DNA from: a virus
DNA: 64,000 nucleotides
Direction: 5' to 3' (one strand)
IMG/VR virus record: IMGVR_UViG_3300028569_000028
Coordinates: 1-64,000 of that record
Shown: piece by piece, positions 3,391 to 28,570 of the stretch
Layout of the letters: every line of letters starts with the position of its first letter
How positions within the stretch are numbered: position 1 is the stretch's first letter
Notes under the pieces: model-generated
The model's database searches: none
Told to the model about the DNA's origin: nothing
Seen by the model: the letters and a program-made list of their open reading frames with translations, nothing else
Position numbers and translations under genes: made by a program

Positions 3391-3594
3391 ATGGAAGTTG
3401 AAATAGGCGATGTTTTTAGAGATAATCATAAAAGTTACATAGAGTATCTGTTTAAAGTTGTGGAAATAATAGACCACATTCGTGTAGATTGTGAGGTTCA
3501 TTTAGCAGGTGGTTGTTTTAGACGTTCAATTGAGCATAAAAATACCTTGCTTAAAATGCAAAAGCTTTCAAGTTTAGAAAGGGAATTATTATGA
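3391..3594 (+). CDS. small SH3/KOW-like protein with C-terminal SSLERELL tail
   Basis: EIGDVF N-terminus; shared C-terminal motif. Confidence 0.65.
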   Translation: MEVEIGDVFRDNHKSYIEYLFKVVEIIDHIRVDCEVHLAGGCFRRSIEHKNTLLKMQKLSSLERELL

Positions 3595-4058
3595 ATATTT
3601 TCGTTTCCTCATCTTGTCCGATTCAATCGGCTAAATATCTCGACAATTCCAGATGCATCAAAATGTGTCTTGAATCCGCTCAACTACTTTCGACAGCGTT
3701 ACGAGTCAACGGCTATAAGGGCGATGATGTCTATAAAATAGCTCATCTTAACCATCCGAGTTCGCGCTGGTGTAGAACTACCCAAGGCAATTACAAATGG
3801 CTTTTAGAGCATTTTAAAGCGTTATGCGATGAGTATACCCGACGCACTGGAAAGATTCATGCAAGTTCTAAACTATTGCCTATTTTTGAGCGAGGCGTTA
3901 GCCTCATTCCAGTGGGTGAGCGTATGCCTTTTTCAAACAATGCAAGAAACTTGACGAAAGGTGTTGACTTTACGCATGAAACTAATGTAACATTGGCATA
4001 TCAACTTTACCTCTCAACTCGTTGGGAGAGTGATGCAAGGGAGCCAAAATGGAGCTAA
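3591..4058 (+). CDS. pyrimidine dimer DNA glycosylase / endonuclease V-like protein
   Basis: MNIF...KMCLESAQLLST...YKIAHLNHP..RW...NYKWL...LCDEYTRR.GKIH. Confidence 0.8.
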   Translation: MNIFVSSSCPIQSAKYLDNSRCIKMCLESAQLLSTALRVNGYKGDDVYKIAHLNHPSSRWCRTTQGNYKWLLEHFKALCDEYTRRTGKIHASSKLLPIFERGVSLIPVGERMPFSNNARNLTKGVDFTHETNVTLAYQLYLSTRWESDAREPKWS

Positions 4059-4420
4059 GTATGGAAGAAATGATTAAAGAACTTTCATCCACTAGTATCA
4101 CATCGGTTGTAGGAAAAGATGGGGAGTCAGCTCTTATCTGGACTATAGAAGGGTGTAATGTAGAATTTGAAAATACTAATATAAAAGCAAATAATGACGA
4201 TATGGAGATTTTTTCATTACTTAGTAAAATGTATATTTCTAACGATTTAGAGATTATGCGAGAAATAGTCACAGGAAGATTAGGTTCAAAAACTTTTAAT
4301 TCTCAAAATAAATCAATAGGGGAGTTAGAAAATGATATTATGGTAAATCTAAAAAAACTTTATCCAGATATTAAACACTTAGTAAAATTTAAAAAAGGAG
4401 AAAACAATGGAAACAATTAA
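4049..4420 (+). CDS. hypothetical protein
   Basis: ORF overlapping its neighbours. Confidence 0.55.
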   Translation: MELSMEEMIKELSSTSITSVVGKDGESALIWTIEGCNVEFENTNIKANNDDMEIFSLLSKMYISNDLEIMREIVTGRLGSKTFNSQNKSIGELENDIMVNLKKLYPDIKHLVKFKKGENNGNN

Positions 4421-4637
4421 GAAATTCAAAAACAGAAAGCTTTACAGCAAAACAACGAAAGGATATGTTACACTTAACTATCTGGTGGATAAGATAAGAC
4501 GTAATGAATCATTCCAAGTTGTAGAGCATGGCACTAACAACGATATAACGACTAAAACACTACGTCAGGCACTAACTACGGTTGAACTTACTGAGGATAT
4601 TATGCGAAAGGTTATTCTTGCCAATGGTTCGAATTAA
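4407..4637 (+). CDS. PhaR/PHB-accumulation regulator N-terminal DNA-binding domain protein
   Basis: IKKFKNRKLYSKTTKGYVTL...F.V....NDIT.KTLRQ matches the PhaR-N pattern IKKYxNRRLY..YITL. Confidence 0.75.
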   Translation: METIKKFKNRKLYSKTTKGYVTLNYLVDKIRRNESFQVVEHGTNNDITTKTLRQALTTVELTEDIMRKVILANGSN

Positions 4638-4896
4638 TTATAAGAAATTAAGCGAAAGTGTTATACAAAGCAAAGAGCTGACTTCCGTTAAGGGAGTCGG
4701 CTATTTTGTTCGTATTGACTATGAAAAAGGTTTGTGGCAGATTTTCAATGCCAAGCGTAGGAATTGCATTAAAAGCGGGACAAGCGATAATAAGAACGTT
4801 CTAAGACGCGCAGCAAGGCGAGAACTTCAAAGTTTAGGGGTAAGGCTTGAAAAAGAATTCACCGAAAAAGGATATTCAAAAACCAGAAGTGGGTGA
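4582..4896 (+). CDS. hypothetical basic protein (likely start 4624)
   Basis: ORF; MVRINYKK start more plausible. Confidence 0.55.
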   Translation: MNLLRILCERLFLPMVRINYKKLSESVIQSKELTSVKGVGYFVRIDYEKGLWQIFNAKRRNCIKSGTSDNKNVLRRAARRELQSLGVRLEKEFTEKGYSKTRSG

Positions 4897-5089
4897 ATTT
4901 TATAAGTTATTTAGATATAGAGGCTTAGACTATGGGAATATTATAGAAATTTTAAAAATTGAAGGTAATGTAGCATTTTATAGAACTCTAGATGGTAGCG
5001 ATTGTGTTTATAATAGTTACTGGGATTTTATTAGTTTTACAGATGTTTTTGATAGGAAACTTACTCCACTGGAAGTCGAGCTTTTATGA
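4847..5089 (+). CDS. small SH3/KOW-like protein with C-terminal TPLEVELL tail
   Basis: PEVGEFY; shared C-terminal motif. Confidence 0.6.
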   Translation: MKKNSPKKDIQKPEVGEFYKLFRYRGLDYGNIIEILKIEGNVAFYRTLDGSDCVYNSYWDFISFTDVFDRKLTPLEVELL

Positions 5090-5262
5090 TTGTATATATT
5101 CTAACAATTTCTATGGTTTATGGTTCAACTACTTATGGCTATAAGTTTATAGAGAAAGCTAATTGTGAGAAAGTAGGAAAAGACCTCACAAAAAGCTTAA
5201 AGTATTCGCAGTTTACTTGCAAAAAGAAACACCACGTTATACAATAAAAGTAGGAGGATTTT

Positions 5263-5763
5263 ATGAACCTAATAGAAAAATTCGAGAACATGCCTTTTCA
5301 AGATGTTAAAACTTTCAACAGCATCTTTAAAAATAGCCCAATTACTGACTTTCCTTTTGACTTAGAAGTTGAGATTGGACATCTAACAACAGATAACCAA
5401 AGAAAAGTAAAAGTTGGCGAGACTATTCTATTCTTAAACCTAACGCAAAAAATCCTAGCAGGTGTTAGAAAAGTCAATAAAAATAATAAAAAGCTTGAGA
5501 AAGTTAATTTAACAACTCTTAAAACACTTCCAGCTATTTATTCAAAGCTTACCCCTACCGAATTCATGACTTATCTTGCAATTAAAGAACTAAAAGAAGT
5601 GGATAGTATCACAGCATTATCCAGAGTTATACCAATGACGACAAAAACTATTTCTACTTGTTTGATAAAGCTATCAAATTTAGGATTGATACAAAAAAAG
5701 AAAGTATCTAATGGAGATAAAACATTTTTAAAAATCGTTGACACAGGCAAACTTTTAGATTAA
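5263..5763 (+). CDS. helix-turn-helix (winged-helix-like) protein
   Basis: LTPTEF...SITALSRVIPMTTKTISTCLIKLSNLGLI C-terminal wHTH pattern; AGGAGG RBS. Confidence 0.6.
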   Translation: MNLIEKFENMPFQDVKTFNSIFKNSPITDFPFDLEVEIGHLTTDNQRKVKVGETILFLNLTQKILAGVRKVNKNNKKLEKVNLTTLKTLPAIYSKLTPTEFMTYLAIKELKEVDSITALSRVIPMTTKTISTCLIKLSNLGLIQKKKVSNGDKTFLKIVDTGKLLD

Positions 5764-5796: not shown

Positions 5797-6954
5797 ATGA
5801 ATATTACACAACTTAAAACCAGCATTCCGTTTCTTATTCAATCTGGACTTGTGCCAAACATTATCGGCAAACATGGTATTGGTAAATCTTCAGTGATTGC
5901 TCAATTTGCCAAAGATAATGGCTATTCTTTCCATCCTTTCTTTCTGGGCCAAATGTCCGACACAGGCGATTTATTGGGACTTCCAGAGTTTGACCGAGAT
6001 GCTAATGGTAAAGCTATTTCAACTAATTTTATTCATCCAGCTAAGCTTCCAAAAAAGCCACGTTCGATTCTATTCTTTGATGAGCTTAATCGTGCATCAA
6101 AAGACTTGCTTCAGGCTATCTTCCAGCTTGCTCTTGAGGGTACTATTCACGACTATACTCTTCCACCAGATTCAGCGATTATCATGGCAATGAATCCAGC
6201 AACAGACGATTATTCTGTACTTGATTTTGCCGACAAAGCTTTTGCGGATCGTTTCGTTCACATTAACCTTGACCCGACTCACGAAGAGTTTCATGCTTAT
6301 ATGACTTCTCGTTATGGCACAAGTGATGTAAGTTCGTTTCTACGTCAGCAAACAAAACTTCTTGAGGAGACTGATCTTGCTCCTGTGACTCTTGAGTTTG
6401 TTAAGCCTTCAAGACGTTCATGGGATAGACTTCAAAAGCTTCAAAACACTGGAATGCCTGAGAATCTATTTAGAGAAGCTGGCATGGGTATTGTTGGAAC
6501 GGCTGCAATGATTGCTTATAGCTCTTGGAAGGAAACTCAGATAAAGATTATTGAAGGTGCTGAGATTTTAGATAATTATGCAGCGGTGAGAGAAAGATAC
6601 CTTGGCTATTTCAAGGATGTTGAATCTCCAAGAAATGACATTGTGTCTACCGTTTGTTCCAACTTTTCAGAGGAACTCACAAAGCGTCTTAAGAGCGGTA
6701 ATCTAAATCTTTCTGAAGGTAAAAATGCCGCAGCTTTCTTGCTTGACTCTCCAATTGAGAACTGCTATTCAACTCTTCTTCCTTTTAGACTTATGGAAGA
6801 ATTTACTAATGACTCAGTAATTATTGATTGCTTGCTTGAGAATAAAGAACTTGTAAATAGAGTAAAAGAAGCTAAGAAAGCAAAAGAAGCTTATTTAAAA
6901 GCAAAAGAGAAGCGAGACAACAAAAATAAACTTGATGAAGAAATACCATTTTAA
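5797..6954 (+). CDS. MoxR-like AAA+ ATPase
   Basis: Walker A GKHGIGKS, Walker B ILFFDELNR, AMNP sensor, DRF Arg finger; upstream of a vWA partner. Confidence 0.85.
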   Translation: MNITQLKTSIPFLIQSGLVPNIIGKHGIGKSSVIAQFAKDNGYSFHPFFLGQMSDTGDLLGLPEFDRDANGKAISTNFIHPAKLPKKPRSILFFDELNRASKDLLQAIFQLALEGTIHDYTLPPDSAIIMAMNPATDDYSVLDFADKAFADRFVHINLDPTHEEFHAYMTSRYGTSDVSSFLRQQTKLLEETDLAPVTLEFVKPSRRSWDRLQKLQNTGMPENLFREAGMGIVGTAAMIAYSSWKETQIKIIEGAEILDNYAAVRERYLGYFKDVESPRNDIVSTVCSNFSEELTKRLKSGNLNLSEGKNAAAFLLDSPIENCYSTLLPFRLMEEFTNDSVIIDCLLENKELVNRVKEAKKAKEAYLKAKEKRDNKNKLDEEIPF

Positions 6955-7033: not shown

Positions 7034-7044
7034 AGGAGAATAGT

Positions 7045-7770
7045 ATGATTTCAAAACTTACCCCAGAACAAGAATCTAAAATTCCTGAATATTTAAACTA
7101 TTGGCTTAGTGTTGGTTTAAGAACTGAAACAATTGATAGGGAAAGAGCTAAAGAATCTATAGATTTTCTTTATACTAAGATTTTAAAGATAGATAAGCCG
7201 AAACAATATCTTTTTTTAGACTCTCCAATGGCTTGTCAGATCTTTTTAAATAGTTCTAACCAGCTTGAGAACCAGCTTAGGAACCAGCTTGGGAACCAGC
7301 TTTGGAACCAGCTTAGGAACCGGCTTTGGAACCAGCTTGAGAACCAGCTTGAGAACCAGCTTAGGAACCAGCTTAGGAACCAGCTTTGGAACCAGCTTAG
7401 GGACCCGCTTAGGGACCAGCTTGAGAACCAGCTTGGGGACCAAAAAATGCAATTTACTTATGAATCCAAAACAAATTGGATGCAGTATTATTATTGGCAC
7501 TATTCGTTTATTTTAAACGAGCTATTTCCTGAAAAAAAGAAAGATTTTAGTTTATTTTTGGAATACTTGGAACACTCTAAGCACTACCATCACACTTATC
7601 TTTCTCCAGACATAGCGGTATTCTCTGACTTTCCTAAAACTATATCAGTAAACTCAGAAGGAAAGCTTGACAATGCGCAAGGAAAAGCTTTAGAATATAG
7701 AGATGGGTATGGCTTTTATGCTTCAAATGGTATTACAGTTAGATCATCATTAGAATTAGAGCTTTTATAA
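7045..7770 (+). CDS. DUF6745-like protein with NQLx tetrapeptide repeats and SSLELELL tail
   Basis: KLTPEQE...LDSP N-terminus, repeat tract, P..I..N.EGKL....KALEYRDGYGFY..NG C-terminus. Confidence 0.65.
   Translation: MISKLTPEQESKIPEYLNYWLSVGLRTETIDRERAKESIDFLYTKILKIDKPKQYLFLDSPMACQIFLNSSNQLENQLRNQLGNQLWNQLRNRLWNQLENQLENQLRNQLRNQLWNQLRDPLRDQLENQLGDQKMQFTYESKTNWMQYYYWHYSFILNELFPEKKKDFSLFLEYLEHSKHYHHTYLSPDIAVFSDFPKTISVNSEGKLDNAQGKALEYRDGYGFYASNGITVRSSLELELL
7258..7437 (+). repeat. 15 x 12-bp tandem repeat AACCAGCTTnnG (NQL[ERGW])
   Basis: read directly from the sequence. Confidence 0.95.
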
Positions 7771-7779: not shown

Positions 7780-8982
7780 ATGAATAAACTTCAGCAATCA
7801 ATTATTTCTCTAATCTTCTCAGAACCTTTCTACGGACATTTGATTTCAAAGATGCGAATAACTAAAACTGATAAAATTCCTACAGCTGGAGTTTATATTA
7901 CTGATAAGATTAACCTAACTTACAATGAGGAATGGCTTGAAAGCTTAGAGCTTATCGATGTTGTGAAAGTGCTTAAGCATGAGTGTGCGCATATTTTACA
8001 AGAGCATATTACAAGAGCTAAACAGATTGGAGCAACTAGTCAAGAACTTCACAAGCGTTTTAACATTGCCACAGATGCAACTATTAATACCCACGATCTT
8101 ATTCCAACAGTTGAAAAGATTGGTGGAGTTACAATCAAAAGCCTAAATGAAATGCTTAAGGGAATGCTTGATAAAGCTAACGAAAAAGATAAAGGTAAAA
8201 GAAAGTTTAAGCCATTAGAAGAAGGAAAGCTTGCGGAGTATTATTACAACCGACTCAATGAGTTTGCAGAAGAAAATGCTGATATCCTTCCAGAGGGTGG
8301 AGGAATGGGTGAAACTATGGATGATCATTCTACTTGGGAACAATCCGAAGGGAATGAAGAAATGCAGAAAGAAATAGCAAAGCAAGCCATTAATGATGCA
8401 GTTAAAGGTGCTGGCGGTATTGGAAATTTGCCGGGAGATATTGCAGCACTTGTAAGTGATATGAATAAAAGCCAAGTTAACTGGAAACAACAGCTTAGAC
8501 AGATGTTCGTAAGTGCGCAAAAGAGTATAAAAGAATCAACAAGAAAAAGACGTAATAGACGTTATGGAATTCTCCAGCCGGGGTCAAAAAGAAAGCCTAA
8601 ATTTAAAGTTACCGTTGCAGTAGATACCTCAGGATCAATGAGTGGAGAACCTTTAAAACATGCGTGGGCTGAACTTTCCGCAATTCACAGCTCATTTACT
8701 GACATAGAGCTGATAGTAATAGAAGCCGACTGTGTTGTGCAGAATGTTTACGAATTTAATCCTAAACAAGTACCTGAATTTAAAGGAACTGGCGGCACAA
8801 GTTATTCTCCGGCAATACAAAAGGCAGCTGAACTTAAAACGGAACTACTGGTATTCATTGGAGACATGGACGCAGCGGATAAGCCAAATAAACCCAAGTT
8901 CCCTGTTGTTTGGTGCGTAACTGGAAATTCAAATCCTCCTGCCGACTTTGGAAAAGTTGTAAGAATAGAGGTAGGTAAATAA
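7780..8982 (+). CDS. metallopeptidase + vWA domain protein (DUF2201-like), MoxR partner
   Basis: HECAH zincin motif; MIDAS DTSGSM; GTGGT; DMD. Confidence 0.85.
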   Translation: MNKLQQSIISLIFSEPFYGHLISKMRITKTDKIPTAGVYITDKINLTYNEEWLESLELIDVVKVLKHECAHILQEHITRAKQIGATSQELHKRFNIATDATINTHDLIPTVEKIGGVTIKSLNEMLKGMLDKANEKDKGKRKFKPLEEGKLAEYYYNRLNEFAEENADILPEGGGMGETMDDHSTWEQSEGNEEMQKEIAKQAINDAVKGAGGIGNLPGDIAALVSDMNKSQVNWKQQLRQMFVSAQKSIKESTRKRRNRRYGILQPGSKRKPKFKVTVAVDTSGSMSGEPLKHAWAELSAIHSSFTDIELIVIEADCVVQNVYEFNPKQVPEFKGTGGTSYSPAIQKAAELKTELLVFIGDMDAADKPNKPKFPVVWCVTGNSNPPADFGKVVRIEVGK

Positions 8983-9560
8983 TGGAAGAGTGGAAGGAAT
9001 TTAGAAAAGGATACTCAATATCTAATCACGGAAGAGTTAGAAATGACGAGACTATGAAAATTAGAAAATTAAGTATAAGAAGAAGCTACTTATCTATTTA
9101 CATTGTGGATAAAAACTACGTAGTTCATAGGCTAGTAGCAAGTTATTTTTTAGAAAAAAGTAACTCAGATTTTAATGTGGTAAATCACTTAGATAGTAAT
9201 AGGTTAAACAATCACTATACAAATTTAGAATGGACCGATGTTAAAGGTAATACAAAGCATTGTTATGATAAAAAACGACACACTTCAATATGGTCAGAAG
9301 AGTTTAAAAGGAAAAGAGCAAAACCAAATGTACCTGCCAAAGCTCGCAAGCGTTATTTACCAATAGGAGTTAAAAAAATAAAGCAAAAAACTAAAGATAA
9401 GTACGTGGCTCAGATAGGAAATAATGAAAAGGGGCTAGTTTACCTAGGTATATATGATACTATAGAAGAAGCTTATAAAAAAATAAAAGACTGGTACTTT
9501 AATACTTATGGAGTATATCCTATGGAAAATTTCACCTACAATCTTAAGGACTCGGTTTAA
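8982..9560 (+). CDS. HNH homing endonuclease (NUMOD4-like N-terminus, AP2-like C-terminus)
   Basis: EEWK..YSISNHGRVRN; VHRLVA..VNHLDSNRLNNHYTNLEW; YLGIYDTIEEA. Confidence 0.85.
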   Translation: MEEWKEFRKGYSISNHGRVRNDETMKIRKLSIRRSYLSIYIVDKNYVVHRLVASYFLEKSNSDFNVVNHLDSNRLNNHYTNLEWTDVKGNTKHCYDKKRHTSIWSEEFKRKRAKPNVPAKARKRYLPIGVKKIKQKTKDKYVAQIGNNEKGLVYLGIYDTIEEAYKKIKDWYFNTYGVYPMENFTYNLKDSV

Positions 9561-9844: not shown

Positions 9845-10579
9845 ATGCGGTACTTGTTAATTACTTTACTGTTAGTTTCATGCGGCAAAGATGGAAAGAA
9901 TGGGAGAAGTGGAGTTGACGGTAAGGATGGATTGAATGGACACTCTCTTACTTCTCAGATCAACATTGCATCTGTTTTGGAATGCTCTACTGGTGGACAA
10001 AGACTTGATATTTATTTAGATATGAATGATAATTTCTCTACGGATGAATATGACTTATATCTTAATAGTTTAGTTGCTTGTAATGGTATAAATGGAATTG
10101 ACGGAGAAGATGGTAATGATGGTTTTGATGGTAGAGATGGAGCTATTGGACTTCAAGGAGAACGAGGAGAGCAAGGACCGCCCGGATTAGAAGGTAAGGT
10201 TGGACCTCAAGGTTTAGATGGAATGCAAGGTCCACAAGGAATCCATGGCATTCAAGGTGCTGTAGGAGAACGTGGAGAAGTTGGTCCAAGGGGATTGCAA
10301 GGGAATGAAGGTGCTAATGGTGCTAATGGATTAGATGGTAAAGATGGTAGTAGTGGGGCAGTTATATCATCATATGTGTCCTCAAATTGTACGCCAATTT
10401 CAGGTACAAGTCTCTTCGTAAAGCCTAACTCAAGTAACTCCGCTGTGTACTCAACAGGCACTTGTTCGGGTTCTAGTAAGTTATATGAAATTGAAAATGG
10501 TACTTCTCTTTTCTTGGATTCTAACATACTAGCTATTAAACTAACTACAGGTGGAATTAGAGTTATTAAGTTCAATTAA
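9845..10579 (+). CDS. collagen-like lipoprotein
   Basis: lipobox LVSC; long Gly-X-Y tract. Confidence 0.8.
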   Translation: MRYLLITLLLVSCGKDGKNGRSGVDGKDGLNGHSLTSQINIASVLECSTGGQRLDIYLDMNDNFSTDEYDLYLNSLVACNGINGIDGEDGNDGFDGRDGAIGLQGERGEQGPPGLEGKVGPQGLDGMQGPQGIHGIQGAVGERGEVGPRGLQGNEGANGANGLDGKDGSSGAVISSYVSSNCTPISGTSLFVKPNSSNSAVYSTGTCSGSSKLYEIENGTSLFLDSNILAIKLTTGGIRVIKFN

Positions 10580-15480: not shown

Positions 15481-16485
15481 TTGAAGGTTCCCTTGGGCAT
15501 TGATGTATCATTTTCTGCTTTAGACTGCTTTGAACAATGCTCGGAGAAGTATAGACTTCGTTATAGAGAACGGCTAACCTCTGAGAAAATTCCAAGTCCT
15601 TTGTTCTTTGGTACAGCTATTGATGCTGCGGTTGAACTTTTTCTACTAAAGAGAAAGGTAAATCTAACCGAGAAAGAACTTGACTTGCTTCTGAATGAAA
15701 ATGCATATTCAATGTTTGACAAAACCATGCGAGAGCAGAATGGTGCATTACTTGAAAGGAATCCTTTGTGTGAGTATTTCTATTCTGACTTTGATCCAAA
15801 CATCCTACTGGCTGAAGATTTTAAAGCACTTACAAAATCCTATCCAAGTATTACAGACTGGGAAGAATTCTTTGCCTATTGTAAAAAAAGCATAAAAACC
15901 CATGGAGAGCTTAAGCCGGGATCAAAAATTGCTTTTAATAACCTATGTTGGCTTAGCCTTTATCGAAAGGGCGAAATGATGCTTAAGGCTTATGAAAGAG
16001 ACATTCTTCCAGAGATTCAAGAAGTATTCGATATTCAAAAAGAAGTTCAGCTATTAAATGAATCTGGAGATCGACTAAGGGGTAAAATTGACTTTATTGC
16101 GAGTTTTAAAGATGATCCTAGCGCAAAGTTCATTATTGATAACAAAACCTCCTCAGAAGCTTATAAAGCAGATTCTGTGGCAAACAGCACTCAGCTTGCT
16201 ATTTACTGCGAAGCTGAGGCTTGTGATAGAGCTAGTTACGTTGTTATGGAAAAAAAGATGCGACTTAAAGAGCCAAAAGCAAGAACCCAGCTTATAAAAG
16301 ACATTATCTCTAATGAGCATAAGCAGAAAACATTTGACATTATAGAACAAAAGCTTAATAATATAGCCTGTGCAGAGTTTCATAAAAAGGACTCTCCAAA
16401 AGAATGCCACTTTTTCGGCAAGCCTTGCGAGTTTTTTAATTTATGCTGGCATGGGAGAATGGATGGGATCAAAAAGAAAAATTAA
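15481..16485 (+). CDS. PD-(D/E)XK nuclease (RecB/Cas4-like)
   Basis: SFSALDCFEQC; GKIDF; IIDNKT; QLAIY; C-terminal Cys cluster. Confidence 0.8.
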   Translation: MKVPLGIDVSFSALDCFEQCSEKYRLRYRERLTSEKIPSPLFFGTAIDAAVELFLLKRKVNLTEKELDLLLNENAYSMFDKTMREQNGALLERNPLCEYFYSDFDPNILLAEDFKALTKSYPSITDWEEFFAYCKKSIKTHGELKPGSKIAFNNLCWLSLYRKGEMMLKAYERDILPEIQEVFDIQKEVQLLNESGDRLRGKIDFIASFKDDPSAKFIIDNKTSSEAYKADSVANSTQLAIYCEAEACDRASYVVMEKKMRLKEPKARTQLIKDIISNEHKQKTFDIIEQKLNNIACAEFHKKDSPKECHFFGKPCEFFNLCWHGRMDGIKKKN

Positions 16486-16678
16486 AGTTGGAGATAATGT
16501 CCTTTGTATACAGGAATTACACGTGCCTAAATTTATTGGACATGTTTGGAAAGTTATAGAAATAGATACAGATAATGGTTTATATTACTGTATTAATCAT
16601 AATATGATAGAGCTTGAGTATGTTTTTCGTTTGGAGGAAATTGCTATAAATTCATCATTAATAAGGGAGTTATTGTGA
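16463..16678 (+). CDS. small SH3/KOW-like protein with C-terminal SSLIRELL tail
   Basis: IKVGDNV; start refined to ATG 16463 after GGGAG. Confidence 0.6.
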   Translation: MGSKRKIKVGDNVLCIQELHVPKFIGHVWKVIEIDTDNGLYYCINHNMIELEYVFRLEEIAINSSLIRELL

Positions 16679-16842
16679 CTTTTAAAAAAGGTGATAAAAT
16701 TATAGACTTACCAAGTGGTAGGATATTCATAATTAAATATATGTTAGACAAAAAGCCCGTTGTTAATAATGGAGAATTTGATTTTCCACTTAGACTGGAA
16801 GTTGTTATAAAATGGAGTCCCTTAATGGAGGAATTGATATGA
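16675..16842 (+). CDS. small SH3/KOW-like protein with C-terminal SPLMEELI tail (55 aa, not in ORF track)
   Basis: GTG start overlapping previous TGA; MTFKKGDKII...WSPLMEELI. Confidence 0.65.
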   Translation: MTFKKGDKIIDLPSGRIFIIKYMLDKKPVVNNGEFDFPLRLEVVIKWSPLMEELI

Positions 16843-17428: not shown

Positions 17429-18013
17429 GTGGACTTCCAAAAGAGAGAAAGCTTTAGAATAAATGTAATCTCCATGTTGGAAACAATATACGGTTTGGGT
17501 GAAGTCTGGGCATTTCACCCAAGTTTTTTAAACATACTAGTATCTAATACAGGAAAAGCAAAAAACGCACTTACTGGAACTGAGTTTTCTATAAGAAAAA
17601 CTTGGCAGGGGTATTGCGTTTGTAGTATTCCTACATTTCATACTACTGGAGTTAAAAAATCAAAAAGTTATTTAGTTCATAGATTAGTAGCAGAAACATT
17701 TTTTACTTTTTTGGTAAATGCAAAAGATTATGAAGTTAATCACATTTCTGGAGATAAATCAGATAATAGTGTTTATAATTTAAATTGGATGACTAGACAA
17801 GAAAATCTCCAACATGCTAGAGATACTGGACTATTTAAATCGTGTTTTGGCTCAGCAAATGGTAGATTTAAGCATTTAGATTCTGATTTGAAAGATATTG
17901 TGGATTTAAAAAAACTAGGCTATACTTATACGGAGATTGCAAAATCGTATAATTTGAAGCCAACTTATATGTCTACCCTATTAAAAAGGAGGGGATTTTT
18001 ATGTCAGGATTAA
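17429..18013 (+). CDS. HNH homing endonuclease with C-terminal HTH
   Basis: VHRLVAETF..VNHISGDKSDNSVYNLNWMTRQEN; TYTEIAKSYNL. Confidence 0.85.
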   Translation: MDFQKRESFRINVISMLETIYGLGEVWAFHPSFLNILVSNTGKAKNALTGTEFSIRKTWQGYCVCSIPTFHTTGVKKSKSYLVHRLVAETFFTFLVNAKDYEVNHISGDKSDNSVYNLNWMTRQENLQHARDTGLFKSCFGSANGRFKHLDSDLKDIVDLKKLGYTYTEIAKSYNLKPTYMSTLLKRRGFLCQD

Positions 18014-19337: not shown

Positions 19338-19562
19338 ATGAAGTTTAAAATTGGACCTTTTCGACAAGCACATAAAACGTTTGTACAAGAGAGATATATA
19401 AAAGATGGTATGGATTCTTTAGCTTTATATTGTGCTGTTAGTTTATGTCCAGTAATTGCAGCTTATACCTATTGTCAAGAAATCGATCCAGATAATTCTG
19501 AGTTGACGAGAAGAATTGAAAGTGTTAAGCTTTTTTATGGAATCGAAGAGGTAGAAGAATGA
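19338..19562 (+). CDS. hypothetical protein
   Basis: GGAG RBS. Confidence 0.6.
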   Translation: MKFKIGPFRQAHKTFVQERYIKDGMDSLALYCAVSLCPVIAAYTYCQEIDPDNSELTRRIESVKLFYGIEEVEE

Positions 19563-19768
19563 AGCCGGGAAGATATATTATTTTAGAAAAAACTGCGTTC
19601 TGGGTTCATTCTGATTTTGACATGTTGGATATTTTAGAAATAACCGAGAAAGAAATAAAGTATGAGTATGTTGGAGATAAGGATAAGATTGTAAGGTGTA
19701 GGTATTATGTAGAATTTATACAACTTAAACTTGCTCCGCATTCACCACTAATGGAAGAATTAATTTAG
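19559..19768 (+). CDS. small beta-rich protein with C-terminal SPLMEELI tail
   Basis: MKPGRYI; shared C-terminal motif. Confidence 0.65.
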   Translation: MKPGRYIILEKTAFWVHSDFDMLDILEITEKEIKYEYVGDKDKIVRCRYYVEFIQLKLAPHSPLMEELI

Positions 19769-19775: not shown

Positions 19776-20807
19776 ATGATTGAAACGAAGGAAAAAATAC
19801 AAATGACTAACTTCAATGATAAAAGAAAGCAACAGATGGGTGTGCGTTCAATGGCAGACCTTCGTCGTTCCGGTAAGGTAACTGGGGGACTTAATACAAA
19901 GCTTTTTGTAAACGGTCCTGTAGAGTTTGACTGCTTAAAAAATCAATGGAGCAGGCAGGAAATGCTTGGAGTTATCGGAGATTCTGGAGTAGGAAAATCA
20001 GAAGTAGTGCTTTGTTTTTTTAAAGAGATTCTTTTGAACAATCCTAATTCTTGTGCGGTATATGTTTCTCTTGAAATGACTGACGAGAAAATTTCCCAGC
20101 GTTGGTACAAGCTAACAGAAGATTGTCCTGAAGTTTCGGAAAGACTATATGTAATTTCTCGCTACGACGAAAATGGTAAAAGTCGAGAAGTTTCTATGGG
20201 CTGGATTAAGAAAGAGCTTGTTAAGTATCGTGAAGTCATTGGAGATGTTGTTTCGTTTGCCATTGACCATATTCACTGCTTAGGAGAGAATGACCCTTCT
20301 ACTCTAAACTCGATTATGATTACGTTAAAAGAAATGGCAGTGGAGATGAATGCTTTTGGAATTGCCATGGCACAAGTTAATAAAGGCGCAGGACAGAAGG
20401 GCGAAGTTCCTCTGGATTCGGATGCAGTACTTGGATGTTCACAATTCAAATATATTTGTAGTGACATTATGCAAATTCACCGTCCTATTTTAAGGCTAGA
20501 GGAAGATGCCAAGATGTCAATAATGGGTTGGGGCTATTGCAAGATTCGAGAGGCTGATAAAGCTGATAAAGTTAAGCGTGGTCAAAACAAGCTTCTGGCT
20601 TATGACATTGACACTCGAAGTTTCAAGAAGATGTCTACTCCAGAGTATTCTACTTTTAAGCTATATTATAATGAGCTTTTAGAAATGAAATCTGCGGAAG
20701 AAAAACACAAGAGCTTTACTTATGACTTGGTGAAAGAAGTTGTGAGTCCAAATGGAAAGGTTGTTATAATTACAGAGAAGTTTAGTGGAGATTCGGGGGA
20801 TTTATAA
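19776..20807 (+). CDS. DnaB-like (SF4) replicative helicase
   Basis: GDSGVGKS, SLEM, IDHIH, AQVNK, KIR motifs. Confidence 0.8.
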   Translation: MIETKEKIQMTNFNDKRKQQMGVRSMADLRRSGKVTGGLNTKLFVNGPVEFDCLKNQWSRQEMLGVIGDSGVGKSEVVLCFFKEILLNNPNSCAVYVSLEMTDEKISQRWYKLTEDCPEVSERLYVISRYDENGKSREVSMGWIKKELVKYREVIGDVVSFAIDHIHCLGENDPSTLNSIMITLKEMAVEMNAFGIAMAQVNKGAGQKGEVPLDSDAVLGCSQFKYICSDIMQIHRPILRLEEDAKMSIMGWGYCKIREADKADKVKRGQNKLLAYDIDTRSFKKMSTPEYSTFKLYYNELLEMKSAEEKHKSFTYDLVKEVVSPNGKVVIITEKFSGDSGDL

Positions 20808-21658: not shown

Positions 21659-21851
21659 GGTGGATGATTTTAAGGTTGGCTCCAAGTACCGTTGTGGTTT
21701 ACATACCTTTTATGTAACTAATATTGACAGCATACACGGATGTGTGTATATTAAGTGGATTAAAGATAATGCTCAAGGTCTTATTTATCTTGGTAGTGAG
21801 TTCTATTCCTATGAAGTTCCACTATCATCCTTAGAAAAGGAGTTACTTTGA
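21630..21851 (+). CDS. small SH3/KOW-like protein with C-terminal SSLEKELL tail
   Basis: FKVGSKY; start uncertain (21630 or GTG 21660). Confidence 0.6.
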   Translation: MEKKLEKRCKVDDFKVGSKYRCGLHTFYVTNIDSIHGCVYIKWIKDNAQGLIYLGSEFYSYEVPLSSLEKELL

Positions 21852-22099
21852 AAGACTCGCTAATTGACTATAATGATATATCATTTGAAAACCTAACTAT
21901 GAAAATGGATCTTGAAGGACTTAGCGATGATATATTACTAGAAGAGTGTAATTTTATATTAAGCGGTCAATATGAAAGTGAACTTATGGATAACGTACTT
22001 GCCAATTACTTTAAAACCGGTAGCATTAGTAAACAAGAGCGTATGGTAGCAGAAGCTCTTTATATACTAGCTAACGGAGAACTTGCATGGGAAATTTAA
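21848..22099 (+). CDS. hypothetical acidic protein
   Basis: TTG start coupled to previous stop, AAGGAG RBS. Confidence 0.6.
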   Translation: MKDSLIDYNDISFENLTMKMDLEGLSDDILLEECNFILSGQYESELMDNVLANYFKTGSISKQERMVAEALYILANGELAWEI

Positions 22100-22317
22100 A
22101 AGTTGGCGATGATATTATAGTTACAAAAGTATTGTGTATTGCTACAGCAATAAAAGCTAAATCAATAATTGGAACTAAACATAAAATTATTCAATTAGAT
22201 TTTGTAGATTTTATAAGCTTCCAATTTCAAACGTATCCGTATCAGATATTAGTAAAAGGTACTACTTTCTGGGTGGAAGGAATTCCTTACAGTTCTTTAA
22301 TGGAGGAGTTATTTTGA
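22087..22317 (+). CDS. small SH3/KOW-like protein with C-terminal SSLMEELF tail
   Basis: LKVGDDI; shared C-terminal motif. Confidence 0.65.
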   Translation: MGNLKVGDDIIVTKVLCIATAIKAKSIIGTKHKIIQLDFVDFISFQFQTYPYQILVKGTTFWVEGIPYSSLMEELF

Positions 22318-23723
22318 AAGATTCTTATCATATTTCTGATAGCATTGCTTATTCCGAATTACGTTCTCTTATATTAGAGGACAAGGAACCTTTTCAACTC
22401 AAGCCTGATAAAATTGAAACAAAAGATTACGAGTTTACATTCGCAGAAACTTATAAGCCTTTTCTAAAAGAATTACAGTATCAAGATGATATCATTTTTG
22501 GTAAAGATAAAACTTTAGAAATTGTGGCTATTGAATTGCAAGATAATAATGCCATTCTATTCAAACTGGATGGTTCTGTAGAGGTACGTCCAGCTAAGTT
22601 TTGGCTTTTATCATCAACAAAGATCGACCTTAATTTTAAAAGACTGGAAGGTAATCTCCATTACAAGTACATTAGGTATTTCTCATCTTATGAGCAATTC
22701 TGCAAATATATGCAAATGTTTATGGGTATGAGAAAAGATGTCTATGGTGTATGGAATGCTCGTGAGCAATTTATGCTTCACGAAGGAATAACGCTTTATA
22801 AGGGACTTCAGCCACAGGATTTAGGTGTACTGGCTTTTGATATTGAGTCTGATGGATTAACAAAGCATTCCGGTAGCCAAGTTTATCTTATTACAAATAG
22901 CTATCGCAAAAAAGACCTGCATATTAAAAAGCACTTCAGACTCGACCATTACAAAGATTGTGGCGAACTTATTGATGCTTGGACTGAATGGCTAAGAGAA
23001 ATTGATCCAGATATTATTAACTTCTGGAACGGATATGGTTATGACTTACCCTATCTTGAGCATGTTGCAGGACTTTATGACACAAGCCTAAAGCTTGGGC
23101 GTGATGGTTCAAATGTCCAATTTAAGAAGAAAGCCTCTCAGAAGCGCGTGGACGGAAATACAAGTTGGGACTACTTTAAAGCTCATATCTATGGTAGACA
23201 AATTATTGATGGTCAATTTGTAGCATTAAACTATGGCGTTGGTAAGGGATATCCAAGTTGGGGGTTAAAGCCTATCGCTGAAGCTGAAGGCTTTGTTACG
23301 CCTGATAGACAATTCTATGATGCTTCTCAAATTCATAAAAACTGGGGAATTCCAGAAGAGCGTGAGAAAATTATCCAGTATGGTATCGATGACTCAGAGG
23401 ATACAATTAATTTATACTTCCGAATGATTACTTCCTATTTTTATACAGCTGTATCAACAGCTATGCCATTTGAAGAAATGCTACAAGGAGCTACTGGTAA
23501 ATGGGTAAATTCAGTTCTTGTGCGGGGATATCTCCAGCGTGGATATTCTATTCCTAAAGCTTCTGAACCGCAAAGAGTAGCTGGTGGTATGAGTTATGGA
23601 ATTCCGGGAATCTATTCCAATGTTCTAAAGTATGATGCTGCCAGTTACTATCCTAGCACTATCCTAAGTTTAATATTCACAATTCAGAAAAAGATCCTGA
23701 CAATATATTTGTTAAGACTGTAA
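22314..23723 (+). CDS. family B DNA polymerase, N-terminal part (3'-5' exonuclease + motif A); frameshifted at ~23665
   Basis: FDIES, NGYGYDLPYL, YGIDD exonuclease motifs; YDAASYYPS motif A. Confidence 0.85.
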   Translation: MKDSYHISDSIAYSELRSLILEDKEPFQLKPDKIETKDYEFTFAETYKPFLKELQYQDDIIFGKDKTLEIVAIELQDNNAILFKLDGSVEVRPAKFWLLSSTKIDLNFKRLEGNLHYKYIRYFSSYEQFCKYMQMFMGMRKDVYGVWNAREQFMLHEGITLYKGLQPQDLGVLAFDIESDGLTKHSGSQVYLITNSYRKKDLHIKKHFRLDHYKDCGELIDAWTEWLREIDPDIINFWNGYGYDLPYLEHVAGLYDTSLKLGRDGSNVQFKKKASQKRVDGNTSWDYFKAHIYGRQIIDGQFVALNYGVGKGYPSWGLKPIAEAEGFVTPDRQFYDASQIHKNWGIPEEREKIIQYGIDDSEDTINLYFRMITSYFYTAVSTAMPFEEMLQGATGKWVNSVLVRGYLQRGYSIPKASEPQRVAGGMSYGIPGIYSNVLKYDAASYYPSTILSLIFTIQKKILTIYLLRL

Positions 23724-24778
23724 AATACTTTACCGAAGCTCGACTAAATAATAAGAAGCTATTTAAAGAAACTGGAGATAAGTATTATGATGATTTACAG
23801 GCTGCTGGTAAAATCTTCATTAACTCAAGTTATGGAGTTTTAGGGACTCCCGGCTTGAACTTTAACTCTTTTGAACACGCAGCAGAAATTACCCGATGTT
23901 GCAGAGCTGGACTTAGCAAGGCTGTAATCTGGGCAACAGGTTATGATATTACTCACTGGTGGAAAGAATATAAGGAAGAACAAGATTATGAAGACTTTTC
24001 TCACATTGATATACAAACTAAAGTTAGCTTTGATAATATGCCTAGAAATAATTACATCCTTGTTAACCTCGATACCGACTCACTCTCTTTCGCTAAAAAT
24101 GACCACAGCAGCTTTTCTGAGGAAGAGAAGCGAAGTATTGAAGAGCAACTTAAAGGAATAATGTATTGCGATTGGGAAGACGATGGTGAATATGACCGAG
24201 TGATTGTTTCCAAGGCTAAGAACTATGTTTTACTTCCCAAGGGTGAAAAGAAGTTTAAAACTAAAGGTTCAAGCTTTGTTGATAGTAAGAAAGAACCGGC
24301 ATTGTTATCTATGCTCCAAGAACTTCTTAAGAGCTTGGTTTTTAATGAAGGAAAGGAGCTGGAGGTTTATAATAGGTATTGCAAAGAAACCTTAGCCATT
24401 TCAAATATTTCTCGTTGGGCTGTAAAAAAGTCTGTGACTAAAAAGCTGTTAACTGGAACTAGGAAAAATGAAACTAAGGTTTTAGAAGCTTTAGACTCGG
24501 ATGCTAGAGAAGGTGATAAAGTTTGGGTTTATAACGCAGTTGATGGAGAGGTTCAAGTTGAAGCAAAAGGTGAACTTCAGTTCTACAAGGATGGTCGTCC
24601 CAAGATGGAAGCAAACCGAGTTCTTAGAAATGTAAAACGCTTTGATGGAAATTATGACAAGGATCATTATTTAAGCAGAGTTTATGCCACTATAAGAATT
24701 TTAGAAAATGTTCTTGATATGTCACAGTTCTTGGATTACTCTAAACCTAAGAATGCTAAACTCAAGGAGAGTTTGTGA
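23657..24778 (+). CDS. family B DNA polymerase, C-terminal part (-1 frame, open from 23657)
   Basis: motif B QAAGKIFINSSYG lies upstream of the ORF-track start 23855; DTDS motif C; KNY. Confidence 0.85.
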   Translation, partial: HYPKFNIHNSEKDPDNIFVKTVKYFTEARLNNKKLFKETGDKYYDDLQAAGKIFINSSYGVLGTPGLNFNSFEHAAEITRCCRAGLSKAVIWATGYDITHWWKEYKEEQDYEDFSHIDIQTKVSFDNMPRNNYILVNLDTDSLSFAKNDHSSFSEEEKRSIEEQLKGIMYCDWEDDGEYDRVIVSKAKNYVLLPKGEKKFKTKGSSFVDSKKEPALLSMLQELLKSLVFNEGKELEVYNRYCKETLAISNISRWAVKKSVTKKLLTGTRKNETKVLEALDSDAREGDKVWVYNAVDGEVQVEAKGELQFYKDGRPKMEANRVLRNVKRFDGNYDKDHYLSRVYATIRILENVLDMSQFLDYSKPKNAKLKESL

Positions 24779-25361: not shown

Positions 25362-25700
25362 ATGTATACTGGAGAAAAAATGAACTTAAAAATTGGCGAT
25401 AAAGTAAAAATGACAAAGAAAGGCTTTAAATTCTACGGCAATATAGAAATCACATTCGATATGAATCAAATTGATGGAAAGATGATTTATGAGCATTTTG
25501 AATCAGCTCTTTGTGAATCCAAAGCTATTCATGGTATTGGTACTGTTAAAAGATTCAACGATCTAAACGAACCTTATGTTCTTTGGGAAAATAGTTTAGA
25601 TGGAATAAGGTATTTCTACACTCACTACTTTGAACTAAAAGATGTAAGAAAGCTTAATTTCTTTGACAGACTTAAAGCTAAACTAAAGAGTTTACTATGA
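25362..25700 (+). CDS. KOW/SH3-like hypothetical protein (likely start 25380)
   Basis: LKIGDKVK; GGAG RBS before ATG 25380. Confidence 0.55.
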   Translation: MYTGEKMNLKIGDKVKMTKKGFKFYGNIEITFDMNQIDGKMIYEHFESALCESKAIHGIGTVKRFNDLNEPYVLWENSLDGIRYFYTHYFELKDVRKLNFFDRLKAKLKSLL

Positions 25701-26274: not shown

Positions 26275-26471
26275 TGGGTTGGTGGGATGATCCTAATTAT
26301 GATTCCAAGAAGAAGGAAGAGAACGAATCTGCTCTACCTTGGGACAAACAAATGTGTCACCATGATTGGAAAGCTGTTGTGCTAATAAGAACTACAGTAT
26401 ATAATTGTATACGTTGTGATGTTAAAAAAGAAGACTTCGAAGCTTGGGAAAAGAAGCGACGAGGCTTTTAA
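26274..26471 (+). CDS. small zinc-binding protein
   Basis: CHHDW...CIRC. Confidence 0.55.
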   Translation: MGWWDDPNYDSKKKEENESALPWDKQMCHHDWKAVVLIRTTVYNCIRCDVKKEDFEAWEKKRRGF

Positions 26472-26581
26472 AGGAACTATATGTCAGATTCAATTGGAAG
26501 TGTTTGTAATAAAGAAGAGTGTAAGGGTACAGAATATACCTGTGCTTGTCAGAAGTGTGAAAAAAACTCAGAAGAAGGATA

Positions 26582-26842
26582 GTGAAAGGTTCAGAGCTTC
26601 TGGAGTTTATTAAGAACAATAATTTAGAAAATGAAGAAATAACTATTGAGTATTTTTCTTGGGAAAGAAAACAAAAATATTGCGGAAAATGTAATTGCAT
26701 TGTAAACTTGAATAGGTTTCACAAAGGAACTTCTGGGCTTGATCCAGATAAATCATCTTTCTATAGATACATATGTAGAGAGTGTTTAAATAAGTCTGCT
26801 TTTCATAAGAAATATAAAAAGAAAGAGGAACTGGGAATATGA
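26582..26842 (+). CDS. zinc-finger protein
   Basis: CGKC...CREC. Confidence 0.55.
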   Translation: MKGSELLEFIKNNNLENEEITIEYFSWERKQKYCGKCNCIVNLNRFHKGTSGLDPDKSSFYRYICRECLNKSAFHKKYKKKEELGI

Positions 26843-27462
26843 ATAGTTATTTTGATAAGTTCGGAAGACTTCATCACAAGCCTTGCATCAACGGAGAACC
26901 CGCTGGAAACAATGGCTGGATTTACTCCGCCTACTTCCATAAAAGTAAAGGGAGTCTTAACTCTATCCTACTAAATGAATGCTTTAGAGATTGTGTGAAA
27001 AAACATCCAAATGGTCAGCTTTATACAAATAGACATCCAGATGGATATAGCAAGGTTCCTCAGTCTCGTGACGAAATTCTTGGCATGGCTTCTCTTGGAT
27101 TCCTTCACCCAATGCATCTAAACGGCTGGAACTTTAGCCCTTACCCTATCCCACCCTTTAGCTTGAAAACGCTTATAAAGCAAGTTTTGGAGCTTAAGGG
27201 ACAGCACAGAAATTATTTCTGGAAGAATGACTTGTCCCAGATTTACCGCTTTGCTTTTTCTGTTCCTTTACAAGATAGAGCTTTTCTGTTAGAATGCTTT
27301 GGAGAAACGAGAAGAATATCTTATTTCTTTTATAAAGCTATTGCTTTTCTTGATGCCAAATTTGGTAAGCCTAAGAATGGCATTCCTTGGCTTAAGTATG
27401 GTGGAGAAGAGAGAAGACGAGTAATGCAAGCTGAGTTTCCAGAAGGACATCCGTTGAGGTAA
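26839..27462 (+). CDS. hypothetical protein
   Basis: 207 aa ORF coupled by ATGA. Confidence 0.65.
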   Translation: MNSYFDKFGRLHHKPCINGEPAGNNGWIYSAYFHKSKGSLNSILLNECFRDCVKKHPNGQLYTNRHPDGYSKVPQSRDEILGMASLGFLHPMHLNGWNFSPYPIPPFSLKTLIKQVLELKGQHRNYFWKNDLSQIYRFAFSVPLQDRAFLLECFGETRRISYFFYKAIAFLDAKFGKPKNGIPWLKYGGEERRRVMQAEFPEGHPLR

Positions 27463-27464
27463 TT

Positions 27465-27704
27465 ATGATTAAGTTTAAAGCATTTATTTATCGCTTTTCA
27501 AACATCTTCGGACTTTACATTTATCTGGCTCAGAAAGAAGAAGACGCCTATATTAATAGCTTAGGTGAAGATGCAGATTTTTTAAGCTCTGGACTTTGGC
27601 AAGCATGTAATGGATTTACAACTATCCTTACATATAAACAACCCTTCTTTAAATCTCTTGTATCCAAAACAAAACATGCTTTTGATTTCAGGAGCTATAA
27701 ATGA
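27465..27704 (+). CDS. hypothetical protein
   Basis: GAGG RBS. Confidence 0.55.
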   Translation: MIKFKAFIYRFSNIFGLYIYLAQKEEDAYINSLGEDADFLSSGLWQACNGFTTILTYKQPFFKSLVSKTKHAFDFRSYK

Positions 27705-28102
27705 TTAGCTGGCAAGAAATTCTAGGCACTTATAAAGAAGCAGACATCCCCAAAGAACATTTGGACAATCTTAGAATTTTGCATAAAAAGATGAATGAAG
27801 TTAGAAAGCAGTACGCTAAGCCGATGACTCCTACCAGCATATATCGAAGTATGGCTGATCATTTGCGTATTTATAAAGAACTTGGCATAACTGACAAGGC
27901 TAAGATTCCAATGAAGTCAAAGCATTTAAGTGGAGAAGCTATTGATATCTCCGATAAAGATGGTGAGCTGATGATTTGGTGCAAGAGTAATGTACTTATA
28001 CTGGAAAGTGTCGGTTTATGGTGCGAAGAGAAAGATGACAAGAAAAGAGTTCACTTCCAGATAGTTCCTCCTAAAAGCGGTAATAGATTCTTTCTTCCAT
28101 AG
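27701..28102 (+). CDS. peptidase M15-family peptidoglycan hydrolase (candidate endolysin)
   Basis: TSIYRS; SKHLSGEAIDI (H-x6-D); VHFQ. Confidence 0.8.
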   Translation: MISWQEILGTYKEADIPKEHLDNLRILHKKMNEVRKQYAKPMTPTSIYRSMADHLRIYKELGITDKAKIPMKSKHLSGEAIDISDKDGELMIWCKSNVLILESVGLWCEEKDDKKRVHFQIVPPKSGNRFFLP

Positions 28103-28270
28103 TATTGACAAACTTTATTTATCATGAGAGACTGCTAAAATGAATTCTGAAGACTACCACAGCCAACGAATTAAGTTACAAGTGTTACAGGCAAAATTAC
28201 AATTTTTACAAGTTGTAATTCAAGTTACTACATTGGCGGCTACTTTAATACTTCTTGGGAATAAGCTATA

Positions 28271-28570
28271 ATGGTCACTATGATAGTTGTTGGAATTTTG
28301 TTGACAATTAATATGTTTTTAATGCATATTGAGTATCTAGGAAAGGCGTATAGCTGGACTTATAAAAAACTCATGAGACCAAAATTTGAATCAGGTGAAC
28401 TTGTAATGATAGGAAATATAGAATTTAAAGTTATGTATGTGACAAAAAACCATAGACCGTACACTTATTATTGTACGCCAGTTAGTTATAAAAAGATGTA
28501 CTTCGTAGATAATTATTACCACGAATCTCAAATCAAAAAGAAGACTGGTTTATTAAAGGAATTAGAATGA
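28271..28570 (+). CDS. TM-anchored SH3-like protein with C-terminal TGLLKELE tail
   Basis: N-terminal hydrophobic helix; PKFESGELV; variant of the shared tail. Confidence 0.6.
   Translation: MVTMIVVGILLTINMFLMHIEYLGKAYSWTYKKLMRPKFESGELVMIGNIEFKVMYVTKNHRPYTYYCTPVSYKKMYFVDNYYHESQIKKKTGLLKELE

Follow-up and report, generated by a model that had tools for sequence, protein, structure and literature searches.

An eight-residue C-terminal ending of small early phage proteins points to a possible common handle

The DNA analysed here (the window) covers the opening 64 kb of a virus record that consists of one contig of 80,011 bases (IMG/VR IMGVR_UViG_3300028569_000028, genome G000), and the subject is an eight-residue ending that recurs at the C-terminus of small, otherwise divergent early proteins of this phage. 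Between 15 and about 40 small early proteins per genome share this tail, which points to a common handle. The ending follows one motif, stands strictly at the C-terminus, is selected as a peptide, occurs on non-homologous bodies, is predicted to be helical and changes its spelling in concert between lineages. It is read here, tentatively and at a little under an even chance, as a handle that one partner, common to all carriers, recognises in trans; we infer the recognition from the pattern of conservation, and the readers named below are candidates only.

The tail and where it occurs

When tail positions are numbered back from the stop codon (-8 for the first of the eight residues, -1 for the last), the motif [ST][SPG]L..EL[LIFE] has nine matches in the six-frame translation of the window. 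All nine lie on the + strand directly before a stop codon, at 3594, 5089, 7770, 16678, 16842, 19768, 21851, 22317 and 28570, and the same translation holds no internal (non-C-terminal) copy of the strict motif. These are the endings listed in the original prediction, each of which was recovered at its stop. The whole genome of 80,011 bp contains 11 strict matches together with looser ones ending at 78317, 78803, 79340 and 79576, all of them C-terminal. A dense array of tails at 78.1-79.9 kb holds two strict and four looser endings (KTLLTELR, YSLIKELL, TSLGKELN and TGLGKQLF), and the carriers in the full genome number 15 to 16.

The + strand carries the early, replication and accessory genes up to ~37 kb and again from ~78 kb, and the - strand carries the structural genes. 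Every carrier falls within the early/replication arm, on the strand opposite to that of the head genes, and the carriers are often neighbours and translationally coupled. The loose form of the tail, [STY]xLxxxLx-stop, ends 97 of 769 coding-strand open reading frames (ORFs) in the relatives (12.6%), as compared to 3 of 1,097 opposite-strand ORFs (0.27%) and 12 of 7,886 ORFs (0.15%) from 41 viral loci that are unrelated.

Among GenBank phages no close relative was found, the best match being a ribonucleotide reductase at 60%. The relatives compared here are other viral contigs and genomes. In L001 the DNA polymerase is 96% identical, six tails are kept in small proteins of 35-82% identity, and one carrier has been lost and another gained. 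In the contigs L045, L068-L076 and L079-L082, 4 to 11 tails are present in 8-21 kb of sequence, and none of them lies off the coding strand; the near-complete genome G003 has 23. Genome G001 (84,740 bases, rated complete) is syntenic, with a helicase of 89% and a capsid protein of 82% identity, and has at least 36 tails. No description of the tail motif was found in the literature on DUF6745, the family of one carrier body, and on shared C-terminal motifs in cyanophage early genes.

Selection on the peptide at the gene junction

Comparison of orthologue pairs revealed 88 synonymous codon differences at Leu -6 and 76 at Leu -2, with 0 replacements at either position, in agreement with the earlier view that conservation is at the protein level. 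The invariant leucines are written as TTA, TTG, CTT, CTA and CTG and the serines in both TCN and AGY, and changes from TTR to CTN and from TCN to AGY are seen. Tail identity stays at ~60% even where the preceding 60 residues are <30% identical. Synonymous switching between codon families with no leucine replaced indicates that selection acts on the tail peptide. The tails differ at most synonymous positions, and for this reason a conserved boundary of a DNA cassette, or a recombination site, was rejected as well.

The tail also lies at a gene junction, and in seven of the nine cases its stop codon shares bases with the start of the next gene (ATGA, GTGA or TTGA). Codons -4 and -3 (AAG GAG, AGG GAG, GAG GAA) resemble the Shine-Dalgarno site of the next gene: AAG or GAG is strongly preferred over AAA or GAA at codon -4, codon -3 begins with G nearly always, and Glu at -3 is found in other overlapping genes too. 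Where these two codons meet, the last base of -4 and the first of -3 are restricted to G-G; the RNA-level bias is limited to this pair of codons and indicates that the ribosome-binding region shapes part of the motif. Such an arrangement could make the ending a by-product of translational coupling, composed of a Shine-Dalgarno site, an A/T-rich spacer and the overlapping start of the next gene. This explanation is extremely improbable. The motif is missing from about 15 other junctions of the window at which genes overlap, no ribosome-binding site reaches positions -8 to -5, and neither the exchange of codon families at Leu and Ser nor the lack of replacements is accounted for. Furthermore, the tail persists where there is no overlap and the next gene has its own ribosome-binding site, at 7770 and 19768, as noted earlier, and also in 11 of the 36 tails of G001. 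A Shine-Dalgarno by-product was therefore rejected as the entire explanation on the codon and junction evidence. The claim in the original prediction that the tail is not just such a by-product holds to this extent, but the overlap of the two signals is larger than it had allowed.

The last codon stays Leu or Phe though the next gene then has to start with TTG or GTG, which also speaks against a coupling by-product. Where tail junctions overlap, TTG or GTG starts occur at 7 of 11 in this genome and at 15 of 25 in G001, as compared to ~1 in 15 at other overlapping junctions. The DNA polymerase gene is among those with a TTG start in the tail overlap (junctions at e.g. 21848 and 22314), and the other overlaps are nearly all ATGA. 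Codon usage indicates a dual-coded junction in which the peptide constraint dominates. It is a clear case in which selection on the same 24 bases concerns the peptide and, in addition, the ribosome-binding region of the next gene, with its Shine-Dalgarno site and often its overlapping start codon, and in which the peptide constraint even imposes TTG or GTG starts downstream.

Bodies of the carriers and lineage-specific spelling

Most carriers are, by structure prediction, a KOW/SH3-like barrel followed by the short tail helix. The original prediction had guessed this fold from early 'xVGD'-type motifs, which are indeed present in the small proteins. The AlphaFold2 model of the protein of 71 amino acids (aa) encoded at 16463..16678, built on an alignment of 36 family members, has a predicted local distance difference test score (pLDDT) of 89, with strands at residues 12-15, 28-35, 40-45, 51-56 and 60-62 and a helix at 65-70. 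Foldseek related this model to NusG/Spt5 KOW, L24, SH3 and Agenet structures (template-modelling score, TM, 0.6-0.7; E 2e-3 or weaker), in accordance with the guess. Pfam and PHROG searches at E < 0.01 gave no family for any of the eight small proteins, ten further tail carriers had no usable Pfam or PHROG family, and the ESM Atlas and a fold search of BFVD returned solely uncharacterised small phage proteins.

A family profile search recovered 463 proteins among 1.84 billion representatives. Small proteins make up 57 of the best 150 profile matches, and 55 of these 57 finish exactly at the tail, with Glu or Gln at -3 in 27, Ala or Ser in 27 and Val in 1. The long matches are tandem SH3-like repeats with weak SH3-type family hits, in which the barrel part is matched without the tail. 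When the tail was trimmed from 132 tail ORFs of 13 sources, the bodies fell into 58 BLAST clusters; some carriers look all-helical, and some have Gly inside the tail. That the tail is portable, as had been proposed, is supported by these clusters and by its presence on a body of DUF6745 type that is not homologous to the barrels.

This last body belongs to a 241-aa protein with QL repeats (7045..7770, + strand) that lies between the MoxR-like and DUF2201 genes described below and ends SSLELELL before TAA, the next gene having a separate ribosome-binding site. It matches DUF6745 (PF20530) at 24.1 bits, below the Pfam gathering cut-off of 27, over profile positions 47-94 of 206, and both phmmer and alignment relate it clearly, as a homologue, to proteins that bear PF20530. 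A partial match below threshold together with clear homology indicates, at the sequence level, a truncated DUF6745 homologue and not a full member. About 40 short phage forms (clusters of 195-313 aa, identity down to 54%) all end N-S-[SPRK]-L-E-L-[EQ]-L-L. Homologues of 330-420 aa, including those of Oscillatoriales cyanobacteria, have ~130 extra residues and no tail, and 41 more distant DUF6745-bearing viral loci (L003-L043) have no such tail either. The original prediction had counted absence of the tail from homologues of this protein against itself, and on this point the outcome is divided: the long cellular ones do lack it, but every short phage form keeps it.

Some of these DUF6745-bearing contigs hold tandem arrays of small ORFs with recurrent endings of their own (L021:11334-13793, L042:17368-19985 on the - strand, L022, L024 and L033), for example ...[SV][VI]R[SG]IK and I[WK]xDL[NSD][GE][NS]. 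These arrays may be plain tandem paralogues.

AlphaFold2 places the tail of the 241-aa protein in a helix at 235-240 (pLDDT about 91) after a five-strand beta-rich subdomain, so that the modelled local setting is again one of strands followed by a helix, even though the body is not homologous to the barrels. A T-P-x-x-hydrophobic segment also comes after these strands in the long DUF6745 proteins, ~10 residues further on.

The spelling of the tail differs between lineages. S-[SP]-L-x-x-E-L-x (the E type) is used by G000, G003, L001, L045, L068-L076 and L079-L082. In G001 at least 36 ORFs end T-[EPD]-L-x-x-A-L-x (the A type), in which residue -3 is Ala in 33, Ser in 3 and Glu in 0, and no Ser occurs at -7. 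The more distant L077 has S-S-L-E-K-A/G-L-x, with A, G or V at -3. Between G000 and G001, five pairs of syntenic orthologues carry the E spelling in the former and the A spelling in the latter: the gene that follows the nuclease, the one that follows the primase, the one that precedes the exonuclease, the short form of DUF6745 and a gene of the early array. The acidic residue, at -3 in one lineage, is often at -7 in the other, on the same helix face one turn apart. As Ala at -3 weakens the Shine-Dalgarno match (AAGGCT as compared to AAGGAG) and other G001 genes keep AGGAG-type sites, the switch from E to A is not an effect of the ribosome-binding site. Recent gene conversion is excluded by the differences of tails within one genome at most synonymous sites, and no barrel column was found that covaries cleanly with E or A at -3. 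Uniformity within a genome, difference between genomes, the joint switch of orthologues and the lack of a covarying barrel column together suggest a constraint common to all carriers, i.e. recognition in trans. The genome-wide change between lineages also fits the shared reader supposed in the original prediction.

In the proposed mechanism, Ser or Thr at -8 would cap a two-turn amphipathic helix, one face of which would be formed by Leu -6, residue -3, Leu -2 and the usually hydrophobic last residue. The helix would act as a portable short linear motif on fast-evolving small early proteins, mainly KOW/SH3-like barrels but also unrelated bodies. One phage or host partner would read the handle, and many different proteins would thereby be handled by the same machine via docking, remodelling or turnover.

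The main and serious rival to recognition in trans is a structural cap acting in cis. The C-terminal helix would close the hydrophobic opening of the barrel in one divergent paralogous family, a few other proteins would have received the tail by recombination at junctions, and uniformity within a lineage would reflect descent or an old exchange of 3' ends. The models are in keeping with it, as the tail is a confident helix (pLDDT 86-91) straight after the last strand in both the barrel and the DUF6745 form, most carriers have a KOW/SH3-like body with the conserved xVGD start, and the subdomain of the short DUF6745 form and the T-P-x-x-hydrophobic segment of the long ones repeat the same arrangement. 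Residues of the kind found at -8 and -7 are moreover generically favourable at helix N-termini. Sso7d/Sac7d and chromodomains have an SH3-like barrel capped by a C-terminal helix, and their likeness, which is structural only (a five-stranded barrel and a short amphipathic helix), would favour such a cap.

The confident helix predictions and the capping residues weigh against recognition in trans. So do several features of the comparison itself: the A-type side consists of one complete genome and a fragment in which residue -3 is variously A, G or V, the E-type genomes are closely related to one another, and concerted change could stem from an ancient exchange of 3' ends among paralogues. The last residue is also variable and may be E, N, R or K, unlike that of degrons read via the terminal carboxylate.

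The structural cap is nevertheless doubtful. It leaves unexplained why -3 and -7 are near-uniform in each genome yet differ between genomes and why the five orthologue pairs switched jointly, a genome-wide change that the Sso7d-like proteins do not explain either. The synonymous divergence among tails of one genome excludes recent gene conversion as its aid, no barrel column follows residue -3, the tandem SH3-like repeats match the barrel without the helix, and the carriers that seem all-helical or have Gly within the tail do not suit a cap.

Association within the family was considered as well, in which the tail of one member would dock on the barrel or tail of another, giving homo- or hetero-oligomers that all change together. 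SH3-like barrels commonly bind peptides, the members are often adjacent and translationally coupled, and concerted change would need no separate hub. It is, however, highly unlikely, since tail type is tracked by no barrel column. The co-folding of two copies of the 71-aa barrel scored 0.08 against a mark of 0.42, which weighs neither for nor against binding.

The nine carriers of the window, all on the + strand, differ in body and surroundings. Start codons are uncertain for three of them (4847 or 4889; 16370 or 16463; 21552 or 21660). The 67-aa protein at 3391..3594 has a KOW/SH3-like N-terminus (EIGD) and ends SSLERELL; its orthologue in L045 (46% identity) ends SSLEKELM. Its stop overlaps, as ATGA, the gene at 3591-4058 for a pyrimidine-dimer glycosylase of T4 endonuclease V type (Pfam Pyr_excise). 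The protein at 4889..5089 (66 aa, or 80 aa from the start at 4847) ends TPLEVELL in an ATGA overlap, and its L045 orthologue (37% identity) ends TSLEIELL. The modelled KOW/SH3-like protein at 16463..16678 ends SSLIRELL in a GTGA overlap, and its syntenic orthologue in G001 ends ATELEKALS. It is followed by a KOW/SH3-like protein of 55 aa with a GTG start (16675..16842, SPLMEELI), which has orthologues in L068-L075 and is absent from L001.

The 69-aa protein at 19559..19768 ends SPLMEELI before TAG, and the DnaB-like helicase gene follows with its own ribosome-binding site. The region of this helicase (19776-20807) is mosaic: it is 43% identical in the L001 contig (L081 was also compared), as compared to 70-96% for flanking genes, and 89% in the more distant G001. 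The KOW/SH3-like protein at 21660..21851 (63 aa) ends SSLEKELL in a TTGA overlap, its syntenic orthologues ending TDLIKALF (G001) and SSLEKGLF (L077). That at 22087..22317 (KOW/SH3-like, 76 aa) ends SSLMEELF in a TTGA overlap with the DNA polymerase gene; its L001 orthologue has a body of 35% identity and ends SSLIEELF, beside a polymerase of 96% identity. The family-B-like polymerase itself (22314-24778) is split into two ORFs, with one base missing near 23664 relative to L001, and is a single ORF in L001 (about 824 aa) and G001 (843 aa). An error of assembly, a true frameshift or programmed frameshifting could account for the split. The 99-aa protein at 28271..28570 combines an N-terminal hydrophobic, membrane-anchor-like segment with an SH3-like part and ends TGLLKELE in an ATGA overlap with the exonuclease gene; ten orthologues were found, with endings such as SDLLKSLL (G001) and SGLLKGLE (L077). 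A 106-aa SH3-like protein at 25380-25700, which starts MNLKIGD and ends ...KAKLKSLL without the tail register, may belong to the family as a member that has diverged or lacks the tail.

Candidate readers, known systems and neighbouring genes

Candidates for the supposed reader are a MoxR-like ATPase with a DUF2201 protein, a Clp-type machine, or a host protein. The MoxR-like AAA+ ATPase (AAA_5; 5797..6954, + strand) is present in G001, G003, G004, G005 and L045. The DUF2201 protein, a putative metallopeptidase (DUF2201_N) with a VWA-like domain (7780..8982, + strand), is present in G001 (59% identity), L044 and L045, the region of both genes lying outside most partial loci. The two genes flank the DUF6745 short form, and the DUF2201 family is common also in phages without tails.

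The original prediction had placed an atypical ClpX among its candidate hubs, and as a general hub it did not hold up. The ClpX-like ATPase (34972..35898, + strand) matches ClpX at E 6e-67, with residue 2 of the query aligned from residue 65 of full-length ClpX. Against E. coli ClpX it aligns in two blocks that skip the ~28-residue segment of the IGF loop; the zinc-binding N-domain is lacking and pore-1 reads GYQG. The gene is present in all three E-type genomes that cover the region (G000, G003 and G004; 86% identity in the latter two), is absent from the complete G001 with its at least 36 tails, and is not found beside the ClpP-like gene of G006. Its absence from G001 means that it cannot be a general reader, and on gene content it was rejected as a universal hub. 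It could be a reader of the E-type tails.

The ClpP-like serine protease (33097..33891, + strand; PF00574, 51 bits) has Ser and His motifs that align with those of a solved ClpP. Its gene occurs in G001, G003, G004 and G006, i.e. every relative whose record covers the region, and was not found in the 57%-complete G005. It is a candidate reader, or it may be the prohead protease, as the head module has no protease gene of its own. In the window this gene is followed by two conserved genes of no assigned function (33097-34784 for the trio), and the trio is kept at the end of the early arm in G001. Both complete relatives, and the majority of the partial records tested, have the MoxR-like and ClpP-like genes.

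As a special case of recognition in trans, the tail could be a degron or timer that sends early proteins to a Clp-type or other phage or host protease and so limits their lifetime. The strictly C-terminal place with its usually non-polar end, the many unrelated clients (the normal pattern of degrons), the ClpP-like protease in every relative covering its region, and the ClpX-like unfoldase, present in the E-type genomes and absent from the A-type G001 and from G006, would fit. An ssrA-like ClpXP degron would need a fixed non-polar end and a ClpX able to dock on ClpP. The phage ClpX-like protein, however, lacks the IGF loop needed for that docking, and the prohead protease could be what the ClpP-like gene encodes. 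The predicted state of the tail is helical and not disordered, and at its final position L, I, F, M, V, E, N, R, K, S and T all occur, so that the end is sometimes charged. A degron is therefore unlikely.

SspB-type adaptors and ssrA-type degrons tie variable bodies to the AAA+ ClpX by a constant C-terminal peptide. The likeness lies in this peptide, in the variable bodies and in the ClpX-like ATPase encoded by the E-type lineage. An SspB-type tail binds the zinc-binding N-domain of ClpX, whereas the phage protein begins at the AAA+ module, lacks the IGF loop as well and is missing from the 36-tail genome, and the last tail residue is not fixed. In phage T7 the acidic C-terminal tails of gp2.5 and gp4 dock on the T7 DNA polymerase; these tails are disordered and end in Phe, and two or three proteins have them. 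There, too, several phage proteins have a common C-terminal tail, and the present carriers are interspersed with replication genes; here, however, 15 to about 40 proteins are concerned and the tail is a leucine-based helix. Clamp-binding and PIP-type motifs have a Gln start and an aromatic or Leu-x-Leu spacing (QLxLF, QxxLxxFF). The tail was rejected as one of these, as it lacks the required Gln and its leucines are spaced i, i+4, i+5. An amphipathic helix for membrane targeting was also rejected, since the tail is acidic or neutral and not basic. SspB and ClpX are treated in PMC13251409.

The internal proteins of T-even phages are highly diverse small accessory proteins with one common terminal capsid targeting peptide (PMC3012670). 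The likeness to the present carriers lies in a short terminal peptide on diverse small phage proteins whose bodies turn over fast between related phages. The T4 peptide, in contrast, is N-terminal, read by the scaffolding core and cut by the prohead protease, whereas the present tail is C-terminal, helical and confined to the early arm. Encapsulin cargo proteins, whose folds are unrelated, finish at the very C-terminus in a short peptide that docks in a pocket by its hydrophobic residues (PMC7925596). Its place on unrelated folds and its spelling, which varies between systems, are shared with the present tail; it differs in being extended and Gly-rich with a basic end, on cargo encoded beside the shell gene, as compared to an acidic or neutral helix on carriers scattered among replication genes.

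That the tail itself targets proteins to a capsid or compartment is scarcely credible. Although the logic of diverse small proteins with only a terminal peptide in common is the same, and the GSL core of encapsulin peptides bears a loose resemblance to the T-S-L-G-K-E-L subtype, the carriers all lie in the early/replication arm opposite to the head genes, one conserved carrier has a membrane-anchor-like N-terminus, and up to ~40 different cargoes would be required. Of the systems compared, the T-even capsid targeting sequence comes nearest in logic, encapsulin cargo peptides are also close, AAA+ adaptor tails, degrons and the T7 tails are more remote analogues, and none of the systems fits as a family.

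Other genes of the early arm deserve mention. HNH or homing-endonuclease genes stand between core genes at 8982-9560, 17429-18013 and 32225-32983, and their positions vary among relatives. A 244-aa protein at 9845-10579 has collagen-like or tail-fibre-like PHROG matches and is encoded in the early arm, far from the structural module. The protein at 36332-36901 matches a PHROG annotated as ferredoxin or auxiliary metabolic gene.

A further elaboration of recognition in trans, slightly more doubtful than the structural cap, is a system of address tags. A lineage-specific helix would link up to ~40 diversifying binders to one reader, such as the MoxR-like protein with the VWA/metallopeptidase or a Clp-type machine, and each binder would bring another host or defence target to the same processing step. 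Tag and reader would co-evolve, giving the switch from S-S...E to T-E...A. If the tail is a handle read in trans, up to a third of the early genes of a genome would belong to the tail system, and host take-over or counter-defence by these phages would be modular, with one constant docking peptide and many disposable recognition bodies. The tail would then offer an experimental entry to dozens of unannotated phage proteins and a portable tag for engineering.

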